A stretch of 64,000 bases of DNA from Acidimicrobiia bacterium (GCA_040289475.1 PSLF01000003.1:91418-155417); one strand, 5' to 3'; positions 29,214-44,100 are shown, counted from the first letter of the stretch. A program made the numbers and translations. The notes: generated from the sequence alone by a model not told the origin.

Positions 29214-30787
29214 AACACAGGAGTGTCATGACCAAAAACAGAACAATTGCCTCAAATGTACCGTTTGTACCCACTTCTTCTTTTTATCGCGGAGACGAAG
29301 GTTGGTCCGTGGCTACTGCACTCGCCCTCGGATTAGTTGCTACCCTCATGGCAACGACAGCTATGTACTTTGCTCTCGGAGATTTTGGAATTGCTACCCG
29401 CTATAGAAACTGGACTGCCGCAATAGCGGCCGCCGAAACGGGGATAGATCAGTATTTGACAAAGCTGGAAGCCGACCCCCAGTACTGGGCCCTTCCTCCA
29501 TCTCAACGTGACCCTGCTTACTTCCCCGGCGAATTAACCTGGACCGCAGTTCCCGAGGGACAGGGTGAATATAAACTAGAGGTAACTGCAATACCGACTC
29601 CGATAGGCAAGCCTGCTAGAGTTTCAATTATCTCTACTGGAAGAGTAAATGGAGTAGTGAGAAGCATTCAAGTCGAATTAGAGAGGAAACAGTTTCTCGA
29701 TTGGATGTACTTCACAGATTTTGAAGCTTATACTCCACAAGAAGGCGGCCGAAACTGCCTCACATACAATCAGGCGCCTCCTGACTGCGGAGCGATAGAT
29801 TTCGTGAGCCAAGATGTCTTGAGGGGACCAATAAAATCAAATGACTGGATCCGCTACTGCGGAACCCCGACCTTTCAATATGCAGTTGAGTCTGGAAGGG
29901 GCGGTGTGTACCGAGCACAGGGTTGTGGGGTTGACGGATCACCGACATATCAGCAGGGTCCGCCAAAGGAGTGCGGGAAAACCGGAACCCCGTGCCCCAG
30001 CGAAATGCCAATTTCCAATGCCAAGCTACTTCAAGATGCAGAACAAGGAGGATATGTCTACCAAGGACCAGTCGAAATTACTCCCTTACCTAACGGCAAA
30101 ATCAGAGTTTATTCTAGGTTCGGAAACGATGCCGTGGCAAACGGTCCTGCCCGTACAAGAACGCTACAGCAGGCTCCTCCCACTTCAACATTGAACGAAT
30201 GGAATCCTCCGCCAAACGGCGTTATATACGTTAGCAATATGACAACACCTCAAAATCAACAAGCAAAAGTTTATGTTGGCGGCACGGTTAGCGGTGGGCT
30301 TACCATCGGATCTGCCTACAGAATCTTTGTCTGGAAATCAATCAATTACGCCGACACATCATCGCGCTCAAGGGATGTGCTTGGGCTGATATCTAATGAA
30401 TCAATCATAATTGGAGACGATCGAGTTGGCTGCAGCGATCCTAGAAAGCGACCTCAAAACCCTACGGTGAGGGCTGCGATGCTGGCACTCAATGGTGACA
30501 TTCGGGCTTGGGGGATAGTCAACCCTCCAGATCCTTGTACGGATCCGGGTGATGGAGAATTTGTCAATGGGACCTTGACTTACTACTCTGCGATAGCCCA
30601 AAAGTGGCGGGGTGTAGTCGGTACATATAAATCATCGGGCGGACAAATACAAATAACCCGTGGCTACGTGAAAGATTACCGCTACGACGAACGACTTAGA
30701 TATGTACAGCCCCCGCGCTTTATGGAACCTACGAACACCAGTTGGAATAAGCTCTCCTGGAGAGAAATTCCTCCCAAGAAGTACTGA
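29210..30787 (+). CDS. PilX_N-like minor-pilin-type protein with large (~430 aa) C-terminal domain
   Basis: 525 aa. Its ATG overlaps the upstream stop (ATGA). The N-terminal hydrophobic helix is WSVATALALGLVATLMATTAMYFALG, followed by a PilX_N-like motif (...WTAAIAAAETGIDQYL). The Cys-rich, beta-rich C-terminal region has no recognisable enzymatic motif. Confidence 0.6.
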   Translation: MKHRSVMTKNRTIASNVPFVPTSSFYRGDEGWSVATALALGLVATLMATTAMYFALGDFGIATRYRNWTAAIAAAETGIDQYLTKLEADPQYWALPPSQRDPAYFPGELTWTAVPEGQGEYKLEVTAIPTPIGKPARVSIISTGRVNGVVRSIQVELERKQFLDWMYFTDFEAYTPQEGGRNCLTYNQAPPDCGAIDFVSQDVLRGPIKSNDWIRYCGTPTFQYAVESGRGGVYRAQGCGVDGSPTYQQGPPKECGKTGTPCPSEMPISNAKLLQDAEQGGYVYQGPVEITPLPNGKIRVYSRFGNDAVANGPARTRTLQQAPPTSTLNEWNPPPNGVIYVSNMTTPQNQQAKVYVGGTVSGGLTIGSAYRIFVWKSINYADTSSRSRDVLGLISNESIIIGDDRVGCSDPRKRPQNPTVRAAMLALNGDIRAWGIVNPPDPCTDPGDGEFVNGTLTYYSAIAQKWRGVVGTYKSSGGQIQITRGYVKDYRYDERLRYVQPPRFMEPTNTSWNKLSWREIPPKKY

Positions 30788-30891
30788 CGTATTTCACGCA
30801 GTTCCAGGGTGTTACTAGCTAAATAATTGCAGGCTGTGTATTCACCCGCGATTGCGAAGTCTATAAAACACGACAGAAAAACTTGTAACTA

Positions 30892-31719
30892 TCAGATTAC
30901 GAAAGCTAGATTGTCGATAAGGCGATAGCCAAGAGTTTCATCTCCTGCCAATTCCACTATGCCTTCCTTTAGTGAAGTGCGGGGATTGATTCGACCCGAA
31001 CACAGCGCGACATATGTGCCAACGTCGCTCCGGAACTTTACTGAAGGCAGAGCTTCAAAAGAGTCAACGGCTATTCCCCTACCGCTTTTTACAGTGACTG
31101 TAAGCTTATCTGGTGGAGGGGTGTCCCGGTATGAAATAACAAAAGTCACCGAGGCTCCCTCTGGAAAAGCTGCTTTTTTTCCCACCACATATGGCATCGC
31201 CTTAAAGCAGCGGCTTACAGCATTACGAGCCGCTTTGCCGGCTAAATTGCCCGGTTTCTTTACTGCACGACGTATATCTTGCTCATGTACCCAGCAGTCG
31301 AACACCCTGATCTTCATAAAATCCAGATAAGAACCAGGGCCTTCAGGTGTCATGACCTGGCGCCCAAACTCTTCTAGACTCATGTTACGTAGATCTTCTA
31401 GACGCTCCTGGGTTATCGATCGAAACTCGGCTAGCACTTCTTCAGGCGGCAATCGCCGTCTCGCTTCAACGTGAACCTCGTTCATTTCGCCTATACGGTT
31501 TTTTACATACGGTCTAGGAACCACTTCCTGATCTGGAGTTGGTTTTCCCGCAAGCATCGACTCGGTTCCAATGATGTGTGACACCTGGTCTTTTACAGTC
31601 CATCCTGGGCAATCGGTCGGCAAATCCCACTCGTGAGCAGAAAGGCCGGAGCAAAGCTCGTCAATGGAAGCCCAAACAGACTCAAGCACGTCGATTGTAT
31701 CTTTTGGATCCTCGTCCAT
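30892..31719 (-). CDS. TIGR03083/DinB_2-type mycothiol-dependent maleylpyruvate-isomerase N-terminal domain family protein
   Basis: 275 aa. The characteristic HEWDLPTDCPGWTVKDQVSHI motif is present. Low-GC gene flanked by AT-rich intergenic DNA. Confidence 0.7.
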   Translation of the reverse strand: MDEDPKDTIDVLESVWASIDELCSGLSAHEWDLPTDCPGWTVKDQVSHIIGTESMLAGKPTPDQEVVPRPYVKNRIGEMNEVHVEARRRLPPEEVLAEFRSITQERLEDLRNMSLEEFGRQVMTPEGPGSYLDFMKIRVFDCWVHEQDIRRAVKKPGNLAGKAARNAVSRCFKAMPYVVGKKAAFPEGASVTFVISYRDTPPPDKLTVTVKSGRGIAVDSFEALPSVKFRSDVGTYVALCSGRINPRTSLKEGIVELAGDETLGYRLIDNLAFVI

Positions 31720-31846
31720 TACCTACGTACTATCTGCAAGGCATTTACCAGTATTAGTCTAAAGAGATATCGTGGGTAGCACTGTATTGTAATTGTTAGA
31801 AGCAGTTTGTGCCATTTGGACGGCGAAATCAATGGAGGTAGCCACC

Positions 31847-32185
31847 ATGGACAAGCTGGAGCGAGTAAAGATACACATGAGCAAGTTCGAGTCTGGATCA
31901 CCAATCGACGAGATACTCGAAGACTATGCCGAGAATTCAGTTTTAGAGGTTCAGGGAAATCGCTTTGAGGGGCGCGATAGCATTGCAAATTTCTTCACCA
32001 AAACCCTAGAGGCATTCGGGCATCAGAAATTCGAAAACATTGAGTATAAAGAGGCAGATGACGGAGCAGTTGAGGTCAGCTGGCAAGCAGGTCCCGTAAA
32101 AGGGGGAGATAAGTTCTACTTCAATGAGAGCGGCATGTTCATACGACAAAAAGCTTACATAGGTAACAGGCCCGAGGATTTTTAG
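31847..32185 (+). CDS. NTF2-like/SnoaL-like small protein
   Basis: The ATG at 31847 (MDKLERVKIHMSKFESGSPIDEILEDYAENSVLEVQGNRFEGRDSIANFF...) is preceded by GGAGG 9 nt upstream. The track ORF starts at 31793. Confidence 0.55.
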   Translation: MDKLERVKIHMSKFESGSPIDEILEDYAENSVLEVQGNRFEGRDSIANFFTKTLEAFGHQKFENIEYKEADDGAVEVSWQAGPVKGGDKFYFNESGMFIRQKAYIGNRPEDF

Positions 32186-35332: not shown

Positions 35333-36382
35333 TCACGAGATCACGGCCTTCTCTGAGCGAAACGCCGTAAAGACGGCCCGCTTGCCGACCACTGTAATGT
35401 GGTGGTATTGGGGGTAGGGGTAGTCGAGGAGAGCCTCCGATCCGGAGGAACGCATGCTCAAGTCACGGGCCTTGAACTTGGAGACCACATACGGGCAGGT
35501 GATATCGATTGTGTCGCACGCAGCACCAGCGGCCCTGTGGGAGACCCACAGCGTTTTTCCTTTGGCGTCCAGTGCGATAGCAGAAGCCGGACCCACGCTA
35601 GCGGAGTCGATAACCGAACCCGTGGTTGCGTCTACTCGAACAACGTCTTGACTACGCTTGCCGGCAAGAAAGATCGTCTGACCGTGCAAGGCGTACAAGG
35701 AGTCGCTCGCTGCCAGAGGCGTGGTGAGATCGGCCAGTACCTGCAAGCTGGATCCATCGAAGATTCTGATTCGGCCGTGCTCACCAACGAGCACTCTCCC
35801 CGTAGCTAGATCCACAGCCAGATTGGTGGCGTAGACTGCCCCAGAGGCGATCTCTGCGATTCGCGCTCCCGAAGAGGGATCTATCACGAACACAGCCCGA
35901 TCTCCAGCCATTGTTGTGCCGCGCACCCCGGCGAAAAGTCTTCCGCTCTTTGGCTCGAATGCCAGGCCCACTGTCGATGCTCCGACATCTATGTAGCCCG
36001 CGTACGACATATCAGCGGCGTTGTAGACGTGAATACCCCATCCATCTGCGGCAAAGATCACGTTCCGTGCAGGGTCATAGGCGAGCTCGAAAAGCATGCC
36101 AGGGTACGCCGAGTTCTGCCTAAGGAGCGAGCCCCCTGGCACCGAGTATGCGTTCACCAACCCCGGTCCCGAAAAGCCGACCTGCGACAAGTAGAGCTCG
36201 GAGCCATTTGTTGCTGCGCCGGCGCTGTATCGGGGCACAACTATCGTCGTCTCGCTGCGCATTCTTTGTGCGTAGGCTCCAGCAGTCATCACGACCGTGG
36301 TAGCAATTGCAAAGAAAACCACGGCGGCGGTGCGGAGCGTATTTCTCTGCCAGCTAGTACTGGCTTTAGGTGTTCGAATCAT
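35333..36382 (-). CDS. Secreted YVTN/YncE-like beta-propeller repeat protein
   Basis: Internal ATG at 36382 is preceded by an AAGGAGAGGGAG RBS. Signal peptide: MIRTPKASTSWQRNTLRTAAVVFFAIATTVVMTAGAYA|Q. Repeated segments of about 40 residues with ...G...D..G...YV... patterns follow. Confidence 0.6.
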   Translation of the reverse strand: MIRTPKASTSWQRNTLRTAAVVFFAIATTVVMTAGAYAQRMRSETTIVVPRYSAGAATNGSELYLSQVGFSGPGLVNAYSVPGGSLLRQNSAYPGMLFELAYDPARNVIFAADGWGIHVYNAADMSYAGYIDVGASTVGLAFEPKSGRLFAGVRGTTMAGDRAVFVIDPSSGARIAEIASGAVYATNLAVDLATGRVLVGEHGRIRIFDGSSLQVLADLTTPLAASDSLYALHGQTIFLAGKRSQDVVRVDATTGSVIDSASVGPASAIALDAKGKTLWVSHRAAGAACDTIDITCPYVVSKFKARDLSMRSSGSEALLDYPYPQYHHITVVGKRAVFTAFRSEKAVIS

Positions 36383-36615
36383 CTCCCTCTCCTTTCGGTG
36401 TGACGGATCGGTCGTAGTTGATTTCGTCGACAAGGGAGGTCGTAGCGAGATGTCGGGGGTCCTGCTTTCGGGATACCGGAAATACTCACTACGAGCGCGC
36501 AAAAGTCCCACCGAAGGTGTGACGAAGGTCCTAGCGACTACAAAGCAACCCGATCGGATGGGAGCCGACAGGAGTAGATCCTCAGGCTATCTGCAGGCGA
36601 AAACAGTCGGACCAG

Positions 36616-37131
36616 CTACCACCGTTCGAAGTGGACGATATCGCTCAAGGGACGCCGCTTTGGATTGGCTATAGGACGGAGGTTCCCTGTCTTGGGGTAT
36701 CCGAACGCTATGACGTGTCTACACAAGAGCCCTTCTGGAATGCCGAGCAGTCGAACAACTGCCTGCTTTTCTTGTACACCCGCATGGCTGCTGCCTATTC
36801 CGAGGGCGGTGGCGGCAATCATCATCGACATAGTCACTTGCCCGAGGTCATACTGAACCCACCAACGCCCCTCTTCGCTGTCTCTCTCGGGAGCCACAAG
36901 TGCCACTGCAGCAGCACACGTTGCGACGTGATGCGCGGCCCCACAGGCATCCGCAAGCCTTCGAAGCGTCTCTCTGTCCCGACAGACAACGAAATTCCAA
37001 GGCTGAGAGTTCATTGCTGAAGGAGACCTTCTCCCTGCTTCGAGGATGCGCTCCAAATCAGACGCTGGAATCGGACGATCTGCAAATTCCCTCACGTCGC
37101 GTCGTGCACAGATCGCGTCCCACGCCTCCAT
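36616..37131 (-). CDS. Nitroreductase-family protein
   Basis: 171 aa. ...RRDVREFADRPIPASDLERILEAGRRSPSAMNSQPWNFVV... is a typical nitroreductase N-terminus. Confidence 0.75.
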   Translation of the reverse strand: MEAWDAICARRDVREFADRPIPASDLERILEAGRRSPSAMNSQPWNFVVCRDRETLRRLADACGAAHHVATCAAAVALVAPERDSEEGRWWVQYDLGQVTMSMMIAATALGIGSSHAGVQEKQAVVRLLGIPEGLLCRHVIAFGYPKTGNLRPIANPKRRPLSDIVHFERW

Positions 37132-37681: not shown

Positions 37682-38824
37682 TTATTGCTGCTGTCCTCCG
37701 GCGTGTGTCTGGGATCCTTGGCCGACTGGGTAGTCGCGCCCGACGACTATCAAGACATCCACCACATCTTGCATTTGGTGATTGAAAACGAGCCGCCCGG
37801 TGCCGAGCCGAGCCCGAATGTCTCTCGCAATGCGCTCGTCAGGTGTGCGGTAGAAAACAATTTGAGTCTCCTCATAATCGAAGCGGTCTGCGTTCTCGGT
37901 GTAAACCACTCTGTATCCTCGCGGAATCAAGCGCTTTGCTACATCCTCAGTTACGGCAACACCGCCGTTCCCATTGAGAATTCCTATACGGATCCTAGAC
38001 TCGACATCTGGAGCAACTGCAGCCCCGGGAAATCTTTGTGTAACAACTCGCCGAATCTCACCCTCCCTCGGCTCGAAGCTCTCGACACCCTCCAAAGTTT
38101 GTTTGGGATCGACAGGAAGAAGCGAGAAAGACACCTCACGAAGGGCGAGCGCTCGGGCAATCTCGTTTGCACTCGATATCGGAACGTTCGAAACGAGATG
38201 TGTTGGGTCTTCGCCAGAGAATCCAAACTCGCCATCAGGCATGGATCTTGCCTTTTGCAGTATCGCCTCGAACACCTTTTGCTTGCGGGCTAGGCGGGCG
38301 ACCTCCGTCTCTCCCTCAGCCCTAAGTTCCAAATAGGCGTTTACTGTTAGAGCATCCATCTTGTAGCGGCCCGGCTGAAACTTGGTGACAATGCTGTTGC
38401 CCTGCCGTGCCCCTAGTCGCTCTTCGACAAGGATGTCGAAAGGCTCAAGGCGAGATATTGCGGCTACGAAAGCGTGTCGATCTAGGATTACAGTGGCGTC
38501 TATCCTCACCCCGAGTAGGTTTTCAGTGGCCAGTTCGATCGAGGCAGGGTCACCGTAGGTAGAGGAATCGCCAAGCGACAAAGGCCCATGAACCGGGACA
38601 TCTGTGGTAGTACCTGCTGGGATCAACAATGCAGACCCCTTGTCCTCGCCCACGAGGCCAAAAAGAACAATGGTGTCCGCTGGGGCGGATACACCATCGG
38701 GCGAGTACACGAACAATAGCGTGTGGTTCGTGCGATCATCAGAAGCGATAGGCTTTCCGGATGGCTTTACACCACCCCGCAAGGCCCAAAGCGCAATGGC
38801 TGCAGCAGCCAGTATGACAATCAC
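37682..38824 (-). CDS. LytR-CpsA-Psr (LCP) family cell-envelope phosphotransferase with C-terminal LytR_C domain (N-terminus probably incomplete or frameshifted)
   Basis: 380 aa from GTG 38824, starting directly in a TM helix (MIVILAAAAIALWAL). The reading frame stays open upstream for 89 codons (to the stop at 39092-39094) without any start codon and encodes an Arg-rich tail. See the 37682-39108 finding. Confidence 0.7.
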   Translation of the reverse strand: MIVILAAAAIALWALRGGVKPSGKPIASDDRTNHTLLFVYSPDGVSAPADTIVLFGLVGEDKGSALLIPAGTTTDVPVHGPLSLGDSSTYGDPASIELATENLLGVRIDATVILDRHAFVAAISRLEPFDILVEERLGARQGNSIVTKFQPGRYKMDALTVNAYLELRAEGETEVARLARKQKVFEAILQKARSMPDGEFGFSGEDPTHLVSNVPISSANEIARALALREVSFSLLPVDPKQTLEGVESFEPREGEIRRVVTQRFPGAAVAPDVESRIRIGILNGNGGVAVTEDVAKRLIPRGYRVVYTENADRFDYEETQIVFYRTPDERIARDIRARLGTGRLVFNHQMQDVVDVLIVVGRDYPVGQGSQTHAGGQQQ

Positions 38825-38925: not shown

Positions 38926-39108
38926 CTAGACGGCCTCCCTCGGAGACGTGCTCCCGCTCTTCTTCCCCAAACTCCGAACCCGAACGAGCGCCGAGAGCAA
39001 GCCCTCCGGAATGTTTAGCTCCTCGGGGCCGCGAAAACTCTTCTTTCTCAGAGCCCTGGTGCGTTGCGTCTCTCCCTTCCGTGTTGCCCCCTCAATCCTA
39101 GCCTCCAC
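38926..39108 (-). pseudogene. Possible displaced 5' segment (Arg/Lys-rich cytoplasmic tail) of the LCP gene in a different frame
   Basis: 60-aa ORF MEARIEGATRKGETQRTRALRKKSFRGPEELN.... Its ATG overlaps the nadD stop in the typical coupled fashion. It is out of frame with the LCP body, which lacks its own upstream start. Confidence 0.3.
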
Positions 39109-39757
39109 GGTCCTCTGAAAAGCGGTACAGACCCCGCTCTTCTATATATGACGCCACTGCTGGGTCCACTCCCTCAGGGCGCTTGCCAGAAGCCACAGCG
39201 CGCCGAATGGAAGTCGACGAGTAAGGTAGAGGCTTTACCGAGTCCAATACACAAAACTCGCCCCTCCTCTCATTCAATGCAGACAACGCGTCTTCTAAGG
39301 GGAAACCTTCTCTAGGGACAACACAGAATTTGACTGAGTCGACAAGCTCCTCCCAGCGATGCCACGATTTAATCCCATTAAGAGCGTCGGCCCCCAAGAT
39401 AAGCCATATCTCTGCGAAAGGATCCTGGCGTCGGAGCGCTTCCACCGTGTCGATCGTGTAGCTAGGGCCGGGTCTATCTAATTCAAAGCGAGGTACTTCT
39501 ATGCCGTCCAAGCCCCTAGCCGCTCGAACAGTCATTTCGTATCGATCCTCGGCCGATGCTCGTGGCCGCTTTTGATACGGGTTCCCCGCCACGACGAGCA
39601 AGACTTTGTCCAAACCAATTGCTTCTTTTGCGCGGCGTGCAATCTCGATGTGTCCCACGTGAGGAGGATCGAAACTTCCCCCAAGTACACCGATTCTCCG
39701 CCTTATCTTCACTCCAGCGATGTCACGAACCGCTCTAATTGCTTCAGGTTCCGGCAC
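39098..39757 (-). CDS. nadD: Nicotinate-nucleotide adenylyltransferase
   Basis: Motif IGVLGGSFDPPHVGHIEIARRA is a (H/T)xGH-type nucleotidyltransferase. An alternative GTG start at 39712 would overlap the upstream VWA stop as GTGA. Confidence 0.85.
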   Translation of the reverse strand: MPEPEAIRAVRDIAGVKIRRRIGVLGGSFDPPHVGHIEIARRAKEAIGLDKVLLVVAGNPYQKRPRASAEDRYEMTVRAARGLDGIEVPRFELDRPGPSYTIDTVEALRRQDPFAEIWLILGADALNGIKSWHRWEELVDSVKFCVVPREGFPLEDALSALNERRGEFCVLDSVKPLPYSSTSIRRAVASGKRPEGVDPAVASYIEERGLYRFSEDRGG

Positions 39758-41211
39758 TCGAAAACCCCATCGCAGTAGGAGGCGTACTCGGCAATGACCG
39801 AGTCTCCCGTGTTCCAGTACGAAGTAGGCTCGGGGTTGAGCCAGAACACTCGCCTCGCCTTGGATCCCATCTCCGCGAGAATCTCTGCGCGACTTGCGTG
39901 ATAGTTGTTTCGAGCATCACCGAGCACGATGATCGTCGTCTTGGGAGTGACGTCTTTTTCATGGGCTTTCCAGAACACCTCGAGTACGTGCCCATAGTCA
40001 GAGTGGCCGTCTATCCACACAACGTTTGCCTCGGCGTTCACCTTGCGCAGTGCTTCGCTCAAATCACCAGCTCTCTCGAAGTGCTCGGTCACCTCGTCTA
40101 TCCCATCGACGAACACCCACGATCTAACTCTGGAAAACTGCGATGCCAACGCGTACACCAACTGCAACGTGAAGCGGGCGAAGTTGGCCACCGACCCCGA
40201 TATGTCACAGAGCAAGAACAGTTCGGGCTTTGTGGGATGTGGTTTTCGAAACTGAGGATAAAAGGGGACTCCGCCGGTGGACATAGATCTCCTGATAGTG
40301 TGTCGCATGTCGATACGCTCTCCCTGACGCTTCCTTCGTGATCTAGCCAGCTTGGCAGCGAGCTTTCTGGAGAGGGGATGAATAGCACGGCGCATCTCGC
40401 GGATCTCGTCACTCGTGGCGTGCATAAACTCAATCTCTTCTGGAAGGGGCTTGTGAATCGATTTCGCCAACGCCTCCGGCCCCCGGTCTTCGACGAGCCA
40501 GCGACGTATTTCGCCCTGAATGAGTTCCCTCAACTTCTCGATCCGGGCTTGAATTTCCTCTCGCAGTAACCGCTCCTCAAGAGAGCTCAACGGTCTTACT
40601 TCTGAATCGGGCCGGTACCGTGCATCGTGGCGTGCTTTAGAAAGAATTGCCTTCACAGCTCTCTCGAATAATGATTCGATGTCGATTTGCTGAAGTGTCC
40701 GATACAGGTAGTACGTTCCACCAACAGGCCTTCCCGGCTCCATGCCAGCGAACGCTTCCACTGCTCGGTAAGCTAGTGCCTGCATCTCCGCATAATCAGC
40801 GTCCAAAATGGCAGCCAGTAAAAGCGCCTGTAGTTCTTCTCGACTCAATCCATCGGATCCCCCACCAGCGGCCTGCCCGAGGCGAGTCTGTCCATCGCTC
40901 CGCCAATTGGAATGCTCTTCCCCCCTACCGTCTCTATTTTTATCTTCAGGAGCCGAAGAGAGCGCACGGCCAAACCTGGGGGCAAAGAAAATGTCGAAGA
41001 GCGTCTCGAAGGTCCTGTAGTGGCCACGACTCTTTACAAGAGTGGCCGCGAGAGCTGCCTTGAAAGCCTCTCTGTCTGTGATTTGTGTGTACCTCAGGCT
41101 TTCTACTGCGTCTATGGACTCCGCCACCGAAACCGGAACCCCTGCCGTCCGCATCGCTGCGACAAAGCGCGTAATCGTTCCAACAGCACCGCTTTTTTCT
41201 TCCAGCATCAA
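39709..41211 (-). CDS. VWA-domain protein of the CoxE-like family (vWA partner of MoxR ATPase)
   Basis: 500 aa with a C-terminal VWA/MIDAS motif (LFLLCDISGSVANFARF...), typical of CoxE-like proteins. The start overlaps the upstream gene stop by 4 nt. Confidence 0.75.
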   Translation of the reverse strand: MMLEEKSGAVGTITRFVAAMRTAGVPVSVAESIDAVESLRYTQITDREAFKAALAATLVKSRGHYRTFETLFDIFFAPRFGRALSSAPEDKNRDGRGEEHSNWRSDGQTRLGQAAGGGSDGLSREELQALLLAAILDADYAEMQALAYRAVEAFAGMEPGRPVGGTYYLYRTLQQIDIESLFERAVKAILSKARHDARYRPDSEVRPLSSLEERLLREEIQARIEKLRELIQGEIRRWLVEDRGPEALAKSIHKPLPEEIEFMHATSDEIREMRRAIHPLSRKLAAKLARSRRKRQGERIDMRHTIRRSMSTGGVPFYPQFRKPHPTKPELFLLCDISGSVANFARFTLQLVYALASQFSRVRSWVFVDGIDEVTEHFERAGDLSEALRKVNAEANVVWIDGHSDYGHVLEVFWKAHEKDVTPKTTIIVLGDARNNYHASRAEILAEMGSKARRVFWLNPEPTSYWNTGDSVIAEYASYCDGVFECRNLKQLERFVTSLE

Positions 41212-41855
41212 GATCGTCCTACCGCATCTTCAAGCGCTGATGAGATGTACTTCTTTTTCCCCGCAATCTCCACCTTGAACAACTCTTCGTGAAAACGAGC
41301 CTCCAGTTCACTCAAAAAGTCCAAGACCTCCTCATCGCTGGGCTTGCCTGAGAGCAACGTTTGGACCGAACCAAAGAGCCATGCGCACTCTAAGCGCACC
41401 TCTTCGACTGCGTTGCCAATGGCTTCTGCGACTTCTGGAATGACTCCTCCTGCCTTCAATGCGGCACCCGTCTCGCTACGCGGTAGCGATTCCCCTGTGG
41501 CAACCTCACTTTCCGCTCCCTCTACAGTCGGAGCTTCTTCGTTATCGGTCTTCTCGTCCTCTTCAGCCGTCCTGAACGCGAAGTACCTCTGGAGTCGCTG
41601 CTGAAGAGCTGCTGTCGCGTCAGCAAGCTGCCTCAAGACTTGGGCCACCAAGTGCGTCCGCACTATAAATCGGGCTTTGTTGGACGCTTTTTGGCGGTCT
41701 TCCACGAGATCTTCTACCGAGTCCGTAAATCGGACGGCTGTATCCTCCAACTCCATGACCGCTGCAGCCAGTGCCCAATCCACGGGCGCGGGCCGCTCGC
41801 CGAGTCGAAGTCGTTCGACTAGCTTTACGCCGCGCGATGGGCCTTGCCTGTTCAA
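41208..41855 (-). CDS. Hypothetical acidic alpha-helical protein, middle gene of MoxR-VWA operon
   Basis: 215 aa with no recognisable motif. It is translationally coupled on both sides by 4-nt overlaps. Confidence 0.5.
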   Translation of the reverse strand: MNRQGPSRGVKLVERLRLGERPAPVDWALAAAVMELEDTAVRFTDSVEDLVEDRQKASNKARFIVRTHLVAQVLRQLADATAALQQRLQRYFAFRTAEEDEKTDNEEAPTVEGAESEVATGESLPRSETGAALKAGGVIPEVAEAIGNAVEEVRLECAWLFGSVQTLLSGKPSDEEVLDFLSELEARFHEELFKVEIAGKKKYISSALEDAVGRS

Positions 41856-42787
41856 GGTGCAGCCCCCGCCGCCTTGAATGGATACTTCTTCTTCCCTTCG
41901 GGTTGGTCGAGTCCGAGTTCACGAACCACCCGATCGAGGTCGGACTTGTTTTTGAGCAACACATTGAGGGTTTCGGCAAGAGAGCTCTCTATGTCGGTTA
42001 CTCCTAGCTCGACTAGAGTCCGAGCCCAGTCTATGGACTCGCTTACCGAGGGAGGCTTTTTCAGGTCGAGCTCTCTGATGGAACGGACAATCCGGGCTAC
42101 CTGCTCGGCCAAGAGCTCGCCGATTGCAGGCACCCGGCGGAGTAAAATTTGCTTCTCTCTCTCCACCGATGGGTAGTCAAGATACAGGAAAAGACACCTG
42201 CGCTTGAGTGCCTCCGACAACTCCCTGGTTGCGTTTGAGGTAAGAACGACCACTGGGCGAGAAACTGCTTTCACCGTTCCAAGCTCGGGAATCGACACCT
42301 GGAAATCAGAGAAAACTTCTAGAAAAAGAGCTTCCGTCTCGATCTCTAAGCGGTCTACTTCGTCTACTAAAAACACCACTGGCTCTGGCGACCTAATGGC
42401 CTGCAAGAGGGGGCGCTCTAGTAGAAACTCCTCGGTGAATATGCTTTCCGAGATGCTTTCCCATCGGGAGTCTGAGCTTTGTTCAGCTTGAATCCTGAGG
42501 AGCTGCTTGCGGTAGTTCCATTCGTATAGAGCCTTGGACTCGTCCAGACCCTCATAGCATTGCAGTCTTATGAGGCGACGTCCGAGAGCTCCCGAAAGAG
42601 CTTTGGACAACTCGGTCTTCCCTGTCCCAGCAGGGCCTTCCACCAAAAGTGGCTTTTCCAAGCGAAGAGCCAAAAACACGGTCGATGCGATGTGCCGGTC
42701 TGGTAGATAACCCTGCGCCTCGAGGGCGCTCGCCGTCTCCTCTACAGTTTTTGGATATTGCTCCATTCCCGAGTTCGGCCTTTTCAA
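41852..42787 (-). CDS. MoxR-family AAA+ ATPase (CoxD-like, AAA_5)
   Basis: 311 aa. Walker A LLVEGPAGTGKTELSKAL, Walker B VVFLVDEVDR and the MoxR arrangement are present. Confidence 0.85.
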   Translation of the reverse strand: MKRPNSGMEQYPKTVEETASALEAQGYLPDRHIASTVFLALRLEKPLLVEGPAGTGKTELSKALSGALGRRLIRLQCYEGLDESKALYEWNYRKQLLRIQAEQSSDSRWESISESIFTEEFLLERPLLQAIRSPEPVVFLVDEVDRLEIETEALFLEVFSDFQVSIPELGTVKAVSRPVVVLTSNATRELSEALKRRCLFLYLDYPSVEREKQILLRRVPAIGELLAEQVARIVRSIRELDLKKPPSVSESIDWARTLVELGVTDIESSLAETLNVLLKNKSDLDRVVRELGLDQPEGKKKYPFKAAGAAP

Positions 42788-42834: not shown

Positions 42835-44100
42835 TTACTCTCGCGTTTGACCATCGCCTAAGAGCACGAACTTGGTAGACGTCAGCTCACGCAGTCCCAT
42901 GGGTCCCCTAGCATGAAGCTTCTGAGTGGAGATACCGATTTCGGCACCGAATCCGAACTCTCCACCGTCCGTGAACCTCGTCGAAGCGTTCACCATAGTC
43001 ACAGCCGCGTCTACTTCTGCACAGAATCGCCTCGCTGTAGGGAGGTGTTCGGTGATGATGGCCTCGGTGTGCTTTGTGTTCCATCGGTTTATGTGTTCGA
43101 TCGCCTCGTCTAGAGATGAAACAACCCTTACCGCAAGGACCTTGTCGAGGTACTCGGTGGCCCAGTCTTCGTCGGTAGCCGCCGCGCACTCGACACCCGC
43201 CTCGATGGCAACTGCTCTCACTCGCTCGTCTCCCCTAATTTCGACACCCCTCAAAACCAAGTCCTGAAGGACCAGTGGAAGAAACGAGTCTGCGACAGCT
43301 TCGTGCACTAGCAAAGTCTCGGCTGCGTTGCACACATATGGCCTTTGGACTTTGGAGTTGATAGCGATAGCAAGAGCTTTGTCCAAGTCTGCGTGTGCAT
43401 CGACATAGACGTGGCAGTTGCCAGCTCCGGTTTCTATTACCGGAACGGAAGAGTTCTCCACTACCTCGTCTATCAAAGCCTGCGATCCCCTGGGGATCAA
43501 AAGATCTACCAAGCCTCTAAGTGTCATGAGTTCCTTGGCCGCTGCGTGCGAAGGATGCTCTATTAGCTGTATAACCTCTGGATCTACATCAGAACGCTTC
43601 AGAGCCTCCTTGATACAAAAAACCAGAGCTTTGTTCGTTTCCAAAGCTGAGGAGGATCCACGAAGAACCACCGCGTTGGAAGTTTTAAAACACAAAGCGA
43701 AGGCATCCACCGTTACGTTAGGTCGAGACTCGTAGATGACACCCACCACTCCGAGCGGGACTCGAACCTTCTGTAGCTGGATGCCATTTGGAAGGGTCCA
43801 TCCTTCCACAATCTCTCCGATTGGGTCCTCTAACGAAGCGACTTGCCTAACAGCGTCTGCGATGGCCGACAGCCGGGCAGAATCCAGAGTGAGACGGTCG
43901 ATCACAGCATCTGCAGCGCCTGCTTGGTGAGCGGCTTCGACGTCGTGGCGGTTGGCCTCGAGCACCCGATCGCAGTTTCTCGCGTCTTCTATTGCGGATG
44001 CAACGTCGATCAGCGCCATGACCTTTTTTGTTCCGCTATAGCGAGCGAGACTGACTGCTGCCTTCTTGGCTGCCTCTGCCTTCTTCTGAGCTTCCCCCAT
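42835..44100 (-). CDS. proA: Gamma-glutamyl phosphate reductase (glutamate-5-semialdehyde dehydrogenase)
   Basis: 421 aa of the aldehyde dehydrogenase fold. ProA-type sequence: catalytic Cys region ...PYVCNAAETLLVH.... Confidence 0.88.
   Translation of the reverse strand: MGEAQKKAEAAKKAAVSLARYSGTKKVMALIDVASAIEDARNCDRVLEANRHDVEAAHQAGAADAVIDRLTLDSARLSAIADAVRQVASLEDPIGEIVEGWTLPNGIQLQKVRVPLGVVGVIYESRPNVTVDAFALCFKTSNAVVLRGSSSALETNKALVFCIKEALKRSDVDPEVIQLIEHPSHAAAKELMTLRGLVDLLIPRGSQALIDEVVENSSVPVIETGAGNCHVYVDAHADLDKALAIAINSKVQRPYVCNAAETLLVHEAVADSFLPLVLQDLVLRGVEIRGDERVRAVAIEAGVECAAATDEDWATEYLDKVLAVRVVSSLDEAIEHINRWNTKHTEAIITEHLPTARRFCAEVDAAVTMVNASTRFTDGGEFGFGAEIGISTQKLHARGPMGLRELTSTKFVLLGDGQTRE

Follow-up and report, generated by a model that had tools for sequence, protein, structure and literature searches.

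An orphan gene between the MoxR ATPase and CoxE-type VWA genes of one Acidimicrobiia lineage and its possible role as a third component of the pair

Results

The middle gene is selected, confined to one clade, and locked in position

A 64,000-nucleotide stretch of DNA from an Acidimicrobiia bacterium (GCA_040289475.1, PSLF01000003.1:91418–155417), hereafter called the window, carries on its minus strand a gene for a MoxR-class AAA+ ATPase (positions 41852–42787), a gene of an orphan family that encodes an acidic helical-bundle protein (41208–41855, the middle gene), and a gene for a CoxE-type VWA protein (39709–41211). The middle gene is real: it is under selection, is confined to one clade, and is positionally locked to the MoxR and VWA genes. 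On balance, we consider it probable that its 215-residue product is an integrated third component of the MoxR–VWA complex, with a role as adaptor or regulator being favored.

GTDB species representatives yielded 80 loci for comparison. The loci with a middle gene that were read besides the window are L001/L002, L004, L005, L006, and L086–L092. In every locus read that bears a homolog, the VWA gene directly follows the middle gene and, where the contig is long enough, a MoxR gene precedes the middle gene; this position is held even in members that are just 31 to 35% identical. Locus L090 retains the trio though nadD no longer lies downstream, and therefore the middle gene is tied to the MoxR and VWA genes and not to nadD.

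These observations bear on a passenger explanation, in which a gene with no relation to the pair and with a function of its own, arisen de novo or acquired, settled in a permissive intergenic site of a highly expressed operon. Such a history would suit an orphan family without detectable relatives, the fastest evolution among the genes of the operon, and an operon that already mixes functionally unrelated genes (proBA, nadD, lytR, and rsfS). It is difficult to reconcile with the exact placement between MoxR and VWA genes across ~13 loci, down to ~31 to 35% identity and including the changed downstream context of L090, or with the retention of overlapping junctions, and we regard it as improbable.

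The preliminary description of this DNA had also raised the prospect of a spurious open reading frame (ORF), to be judged by homologs of the middle gene and by its presence in relatives that keep both partners. Conserved homologs do exist, in the same position in all loci read; most relatives with MoxR and VWA genes lack the middle gene, and we attribute this absence to a single lineage-specific gain rather than to a spurious ORF. Intergenic sequence, or part of a longer neighboring gene, might indeed have a TTG start, contain no known domain, and be absent from most relatives. It would not yield ~19 conserved proteins with invariant motifs, pN far below pS (defined below), a confident AlphaFold2 model from seven sequences, and orthologs starting with ATG or GTG. 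Conservation refutes this explanation, to which we assign virtually no likelihood.

A probable single insertion into an older MoxR–VWA junction

The MoxR and VWA genes directly follow proB–proA in most of those Acidimicrobiia loci whose upstream sequence is long enough to tell, and nadD–rsfS usually lies 1 to 6 kb beyond the pair in the sampled loci of this class. Most relatives that keep the pair lack the middle gene, and the two genes are then adjacent. For the majority of loci outside the middle-gene clade, the estimated spacing from MoxR stop to VWA start is −25 to +80 nt; in Rhabdothermincola salaria, for example, they overlap by 4 nt and no middle gene is present. Searches with a hidden Markov model (HMM) found no traces of the middle gene in loci outside the clade. 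Among Thermoleophilia relatives, whose VWA proteins are 33 to 35% identical, the pair is located away from proA and nadD, and at one such locus (L072) the neighbors give no functional hint. The MoxR–VWA pair is far older than the middle gene.

Two long MoxR–VWA spacers, in L053 and L007, were considered as possible sites of a remnant or precursor of the middle gene and rejected, as the HMM finds nothing there and the spacer is a VWA extension. In these sister-clade loci, the 220 to 340 nt that separate MoxR from the conserved VWA core (L053, 5625–6001; L007, 5734–6001) do not form a gene of their own but lengthen the VWA ORF at its N terminus by a low-complexity segment rich in G, A, R, P, and E.

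When VWA proteins are placed on a neighbor-joining tree, the 13 loci with a middle gene all group in a single clade, which is divided into three sub-branches; the gene is absent from every locus outside this clade. Because these loci form one clade, we propose a single gain. These comparisons are explained most simply by one insertion of the gene between MoxR and VWA genes that were already adjacent, after which it was strictly kept. The VWA tree fits vertical descent of the locus.

The middle protein is an orphan with a conserved N-terminal peptide

The preliminary description had called the middle protein acidic, helical, and uncharacterized, and this holds: its isoelectric point is 4.8, it is predicted to be almost entirely helical, and it belongs to no Pfam family. 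A word-indexed search of 5.8 billion proteins yielded seven relatives at 40 to 60% identity, and a wider profile (A3) enlarged the family to 19 proteins with identities down to ~26 to 35%. When 1.84 billion cluster representatives were searched exhaustively with a HMMER profile, 10 hits were returned, of which nine are family members and one is a marginal repeat protein. No match to the middle protein was found in Pfam (E ≤ 0.01), NCBIfam, or PADLOC, and seven members of the family compared with Pfam at E ≤ 10 matched nothing. Its sequence profile retrieved only noise from the PDB, and a Foldseek comparison of the predicted structure with the PDB gave just de novo or generic helical bundles with E values of 0.1 or worse. 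The middle protein is an orphan, with an origin that is either de novo or in an unsampled donor.

Two sources within the locus itself were tried and rejected. Derivation from a duplicated N-terminal helical region of the VWA protein received a probability of 0.5% when alignments A1 and A2 were compared with hhalign. Derivation from the C-terminal tail of the MoxR ATPase was suggested by a common ‘GKKKY’ in the window, which is not conserved in orthologs and is a coincidence.

Conservation within the family is concentrated in a few elements. The N-terminal peptide GVKLVERLRLGE (residues 9–20; 41796–41831), which can be extended as GVKLVERLRLGE-P---DW-LA, is near invariant, and conserved acidic residues near the N terminus are E14, E20, and D26. 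Other conserved motifs are YF--R and, in the C-terminal helix, LDF--E-EARF. There are 60 invariant columns in an alignment of seven sequences and 22 in an alignment of 12 sequences (33 to 60% identity). An acidic disordered linker at residues ~96–127 (41475–41570), with 11 D/E residues versus two K/R residues in the window copy, is highly variable in length across the family.

An AlphaFold2 model computed from seven sequences (predicted local distance difference test [pLDDT] score of 79 and predicted template modeling score of 0.74) comprises two helical halves, with the disordered acidic linker between them, and a single small β-hairpin. The conserved N-terminal peptide has low pLDDT and is not packed on the bundle in this monomer model.

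Selection was assessed from the proportions of nonsynonymous (pN) and synonymous (pS) differences, since synonymous sites are saturated and these values do not amount to proper dN/dS ratios. Among closer orthologs, the middle gene has a pN of 0.23 to 0.29 versus a pS of 0.66 to 0.81, which is similar to nadD in the same genomes; pN is lower for both partners, at 0.09 to 0.15 for MoxR and 0.11 to 0.20 for VWA. Judged by these proportions, the middle gene is under purifying selection at about the level of nadD.

The flanking genes encode an intact MoxR-class ATPase and a CoxE-type VWA protein

The MoxR gene encodes 311 amino acids when read from TTG 42787, and an alternative start is ATG 42766. 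Its assignment in the preliminary description to the MoxR/CoxD type of AAA_5 ATPases is borne out by a Pfam AAA_5 match with an E value of 6e-12 (46.1 bits versus a cutoff of 22), which places the protein in that family. The Walker A motif GPAGTGKT (residues 51–58; 42614–42637) and the Walker B motif VFLVDE (residues 138–143; 42359–42376) are intact. The best NCBIfam model is the MadB-family AAA ATPase, which is matched over its full length with 305.4 bits, against an equivalog cutoff of 475. Identity to orthologs is 79 to 82% in the window-type loci compared and 70% in L006. Sequence comparison with the PDB yields no match other than the AAA modules of midasin (2e-14) and of a dynein heavy chain (4e-06). 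A partner gene for a VWA protein with a metal ion-dependent adhesion site (MIDAS) is situated one gene downstream in the window and directly adjacent in relatives that lack the middle gene.

The partner was likewise correctly recognized as a CoxE-like VWA/MIDAS protein. Pfam VWA_CoxE (PF05762) matches residues 274–493 with an E value of 3e-45 (154.8 bits versus a cutoff of 26.4). The MIDAS sequence DISGS occupies residues 335–339 (40192–40206), and the D, S, and S of the DxSxS pattern are invariant in 16 homologs (alignment A2). The best NCBIfam model is the MadC family (181.6 bits versus a cutoff of 600), with a match that spans the C-terminal VWA half. In the AlphaFold2 model (pLDDT 68), an N-terminal four-helix region is followed by a disordered linker at ~78–119, a long helical middle, and a C-terminal VWA fold, and this last region matches solved VWA domains by Foldseek; no solved structure in the PDB has sequence similarity to the protein. 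The chain ends ~6 residues past the Pfam match, with no C-terminal effector domain. The protein has more than 8000 full-length homologs, and its architecture is uniform across homologs.

One position of the VWA protein deserves separate mention. Residue 334 (40207–40209), which just precedes the MIDAS residue Asp335, is Cys in all 13 loci with a middle gene and Ala in 54 of the 56 loci without it. A334C is the only nonconservative partner substitution that tracks the middle gene and the most suggestive of the few found.

Four minus-strand genes are chained by overlaps

According to the preliminary description, both junctions of the trio overlap by exactly 4 nt. This is correct for the MoxR/middle junction (41852–41855), where TTGA can be read directly: the MoxR stop codon TGA (41854–41852, within ccTTGAac) overlaps the middle-gene start TTG 41855 by 4 nt. 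That start is supported because, in the alignment of homologs, the conserved block begins at residue 9 and there is no earlier in-frame start. Middle-gene orthologs start with ATG or GTG, and equivalent overlaps of 4 or 1 nt are present in L086, L087, L088, L089, and L092.

The second junction (41208–41211) is more likely a 1-nt overlap. The middle-gene stop TGA (41210–41208) is embedded in TTGATG, such that a VWA start at TTG 41211 (500 amino acids) would give an overlap of 4 nt and a start at ATG 41208 (499 amino acids) an overlap of 1 nt. The ATG appears to be the more likely start because AGGA lies 8 nt upstream and because orthologs L086 and L087 have TGATG; GTGA or ATGA is found in L088, L090, and L091. 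Wherever both gene ends are legible, the MoxR/middle and middle/VWA junctions are overlaps or gaps of at most 11 nt.

The VWA stop was said to abut nadD, and this can be made sharper. The nadD gene (39098–39712) encodes nicotinate-mononucleotide adenylyltransferase (Pfam CTP_transf_like, 6e-25) and is a downstream neighbor outside the module proper. Its most likely start, as judged by comparison with orthologous loci, would be GTG 39712, which overlaps the VWA stop by 4 nt (GTGA, 39709–39712) and gives a NadD protein of 204 amino acids; L086 and L087 have the same GTGA junction and NadD length. A start at 39757, as in the longest ORF, is less probable. Read in this way, MoxR, middle, VWA, and nadD genes are chained by overlaps. 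Upstream lies proA (42835–44100, minus strand; Pfam Aldedh), which encodes gamma-glutamyl phosphate reductase and provides context only. The trio is hosted by a cluster of the actinobacterial housekeeping type, rplU–rpmA–obg–proB–proA–...–nadD–rsfS, in which no convincing internal terminators were found. Other genes of the same operon also overlap (proB/obg by 4 nt and L27/L21 by 8 nt). Because stop/start overlaps are ordinary in this operon, those of the trio demonstrate tight packing and nothing unusual per se.

Other features of the window and of the sampled loci

Between nadD and rsfS, the window encodes a LytR-CpsA-Psr/LytR_C protein (37682–38824) that occurs only in the middle-gene clade and a few relatives; in most other Acidimicrobiia loci, nadD is followed by rsfS without it. 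Downstream of rsfS is a gene for a β-propeller-like repeat protein (35333–37131), with FG-GAP/ASPIC hits in orthologous loci, and then one for a nitroreductase; synteny of both with the operon extends to L001 and L086–L088. The guanine plus cytosine content falls to 0.478 at 30001–32000, compared with ~0.55 elsewhere in the window, and this interval could be foreign or otherwise atypical DNA.

Five loci (L018, L063, L022, L006, and L064) come from entries titled ‘Bifidobacterium breve’, ‘Bordetella parapertussis’, ‘Acidobacteria bacterium’, or ‘Acidobacteriaceae’, and all are of the Acidimicrobiia type. Each has MoxR–VWA_CoxE genes or a VWA fragment, with proB–proA or nadD where the contig suffices, and they are probably mislabeled metagenome-assembled genomes or misbinned contigs. 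In L093 (3779–5966), on a long-read-style contig, neither proA nor MoxR stays in one reading frame, each being spread over several, and the splits are probably assembly frameshifts rather than pseudogenes.

Discussion

A candidate third subunit of a MoxR–VWA remodeler

The findings are best read as a lineage-specific accessory to a remodeler of known kind and not as a defense system. The core would be a vertically inherited remodeling pair of MoxR AAA+ ATPase and CoxE-type VWA protein, located within a housekeeping cluster and belonging to the broad family covered by the CoxD/CoxE and MadB/MadC models. In one Acidimicrobiia lineage, a new gene would have been inserted once between the partners and kept since. 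Through stop/start coupling, the middle protein would be made in fixed proportion with its neighbors. We take it for a probable third subunit that serves as an adaptor or regulator. Because the most conserved element of the protein is an N-terminal peptide that is unpacked in the monomer model, we propose that this peptide is a partner-docking motif. It could dock onto the MIDAS face of the VWA protein or onto the MoxR ring, and the docked protein may then adjust the choice of client by the ATPase or the timing of its action. Recognition of ligands by MIDAS sites is established in integrins, midasin, and CbbO, which is the ground for considering an acidic peptide here, and E14, E20, and D26 could serve the MIDAS site. 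Our confidence in any specific docking mode is considerably lower than in the role as a third component.

The main competing explanation is that the middle protein is a client encoded in cis, which the pair would fold, assemble, or load with a cofactor. The same positional and coupling evidence fits this idea, the exposed conserved peptide with E14, E20, and D26 could be a MIDAS ligand, and MoxR–VWA pairs are typically dedicated to one client; NorQ/NorD is such a pair, dedicated to the c-type nitric oxide reductase (cNOR) (PMC9976466). Weighing on the other side is the much greater age of the pair, which is kept without the middle gene in most Acidimicrobiia. Because the pair is retained there, another client would be needed. 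A small helical bundle without a cofactor-binding motif is also an unlikely maturation target. We therefore hold the client explanation to be unlikely, while giving it more weight than the passenger explanation considered above.

Several points weigh against the third-component reading. The sampled loci were picked by peptide patterns taken from the query, and the VWA neighbor-joining tree carries no support values. Of the three proteins, the middle one evolves the fastest: its identity to the L001 ortholog is 57%, whereas MoxR reaches 82% and VWA 71%. Clade-specific substitutions in MoxR and VWA that track the middle gene are few and mostly conservative, and therefore give no clear signal of coevolution. 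Most relatives do without the middle gene, and so it must be dispensable for core activity. Finally, gene order alone cannot tell an adaptor, a regulator, and a client apart.

A more far-reaching speculation, which we rate as quite improbable, is that the proA-linked pair might be a split bacterial analog of the eukaryotic Rea1/midasin that acts in assembly or silencing of the large ribosomal subunit together with L21, L27, Obg, and RsfS. Midasin, which unites AAA modules of the MoxR-like kind with a MIDAS domain, removes assembly factors from pre-60S particles. By this analogy, the middle protein would serve its clade as an adaptor and offer its conserved acidic peptide to the MIDAS site, like the ubiquitin-like domains of Ytm1/Rsa4. 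The operon context and the midasin and dynein matches of the ATPase, a generic AAA similarity, are compatible with this proposal; unrelated metabolic genes (proBA and nadD) are present in the cluster as well.

Returning to the third-component reading, its interest is that MoxR–VWA pairs are among the commonest prokaryotic AAA+ modules and their clients are poorly understood. The pair described here has no assigned client despite its conservation in a housekeeping operon in most sampled Acidimicrobiia loci. The small middle protein is a natural handle that could reveal the partner-binding face of the complex and perhaps the client. The locus also presents a clean case of an orphan gene recruited into an ancient two-gene machine. 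No new defense or signaling system is added, and the novelty lies in an orphan accessory on a MoxR–VWA pair of known kind.

Comparison with known systems

The CoxD/CoxE proteins of Oligotropha carboxidovorans, which are associated with CO dehydrogenase, resemble the present pair in having a full PF05762 VWA protein and a MoxR-class (AAA_5) ATPase encoded upstream. CoxE-type vWA proteins have an N-terminal helical region (PMC7159879), and this layout is also seen in the present VWA model. In contrast to CoxDEF, no gene for a CO dehydrogenase, another molybdenum enzyme, or a CoxF/XdhC-like protein is found among the annotated flanking genes or in the Thermoleophilia relative. Because the flanks hold no such gene, the neighbors being proA and nadD in the window and in orthologous loci alike, the trio is not a CoxDEF system. 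In the cox cluster, a third protein, CoxF, follows CoxE. In the present locus, the third gene instead separates the two partner genes, and its product has no relation to known families.

MadB/MadC (NF047784/NF047783) are the best curated matches and agree well in length (298 and 498 profile positions versus proteins of 311 and 499 amino acids). Because the scores are far under the equivalog cutoffs, we regard the present pair as paralogs of MadB/MadC and not as members of these families. MadA is a mycofactocin-dependent alcohol dehydrogenase of Rhodococcus jostii RHA1 (PMC13210347). MadB and MadC would be accessory partners of MadA, as far as can be judged by name only; our literature search found no paper on either of them, only on MadA. 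The present pair differs in having no adjacent alcohol dehydrogenase gene, and nothing in the NCBIfam names points to a middle gene in the Mad system.

In Mycobacterium tuberculosis, Rv2426c and Rv2425c, the latter a VWA protein, lie between proA (Rv2427c) and nadD (Rv2421c) and are candidate counterparts of the pair. With this gene order, the arrangement proA–MoxR–VWA...nadD–rsfS of most sampled Acidimicrobiia loci would extend to Mycobacterium. We know of no middle gene at that locus. A homolog of Rv2426c is annotated as ‘ATPase AAA’ (PMC7174638), and Rv2425c has been listed as a conserved hypothetical protein (PMC1884158).

The preliminary description had pointed to the ternary conflict or signaling systems that add a vWA-MoxR-associated protein (VMAP) to the pair, as described by Kaur, Burroughs, Iyer, and Aravind in 2020, in which case the middle protein would act as a sensor. 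The likeness consists of three linked genes that include MoxR and vWA components and a fast-evolving helical third protein, as the VMAP-M region is all-α and rapidly diverging (PMC7159879). However, VMAPs carry a conserved α+β VMAP-C domain of ~7 strands and six to seven helices, and their vWA partners have variable C-terminal effector domains (PMC7159879). The middle-protein model has one β-hairpin and no α+β domain resembling VMAP-C, and the Pfam comparison at E ≤ 10 described above gave no family of any kind; the argument here is mainly one of size and secondary structure. The VWA partner has the N-terminal helical region of the CoxE type, a different architecture, and lacks an effector domain. 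PADLOC reported nothing relevant, only weak generic P-loop hits, and conserved, vertical synteny in a housekeeping operon replaces the mobile and variable neighborhoods of VMAP systems. The suggestion is largely refuted, and we now see very little chance that it is right.

Genes placed between MoxR and VWA genes also have precedents. Operons of the types MoxR–DUF58–VWA (BatA type) and, in E. coli, yehL–yehM–yehP were reportedly described by Snider and Houry in 2006 as having an intercalated gene. The middle protein was considered as a DUF58 protein and rejected, as the Pfam searches assigned neither the window protein (E ≤ 0.01) nor the seven members (E ≤ 10) to any family, and it is much smaller than YehM. 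Both operon types nevertheless provide precedents for a protein that is neither an ATPase nor a MIDAS protein and that is encoded between MoxR and VWA.

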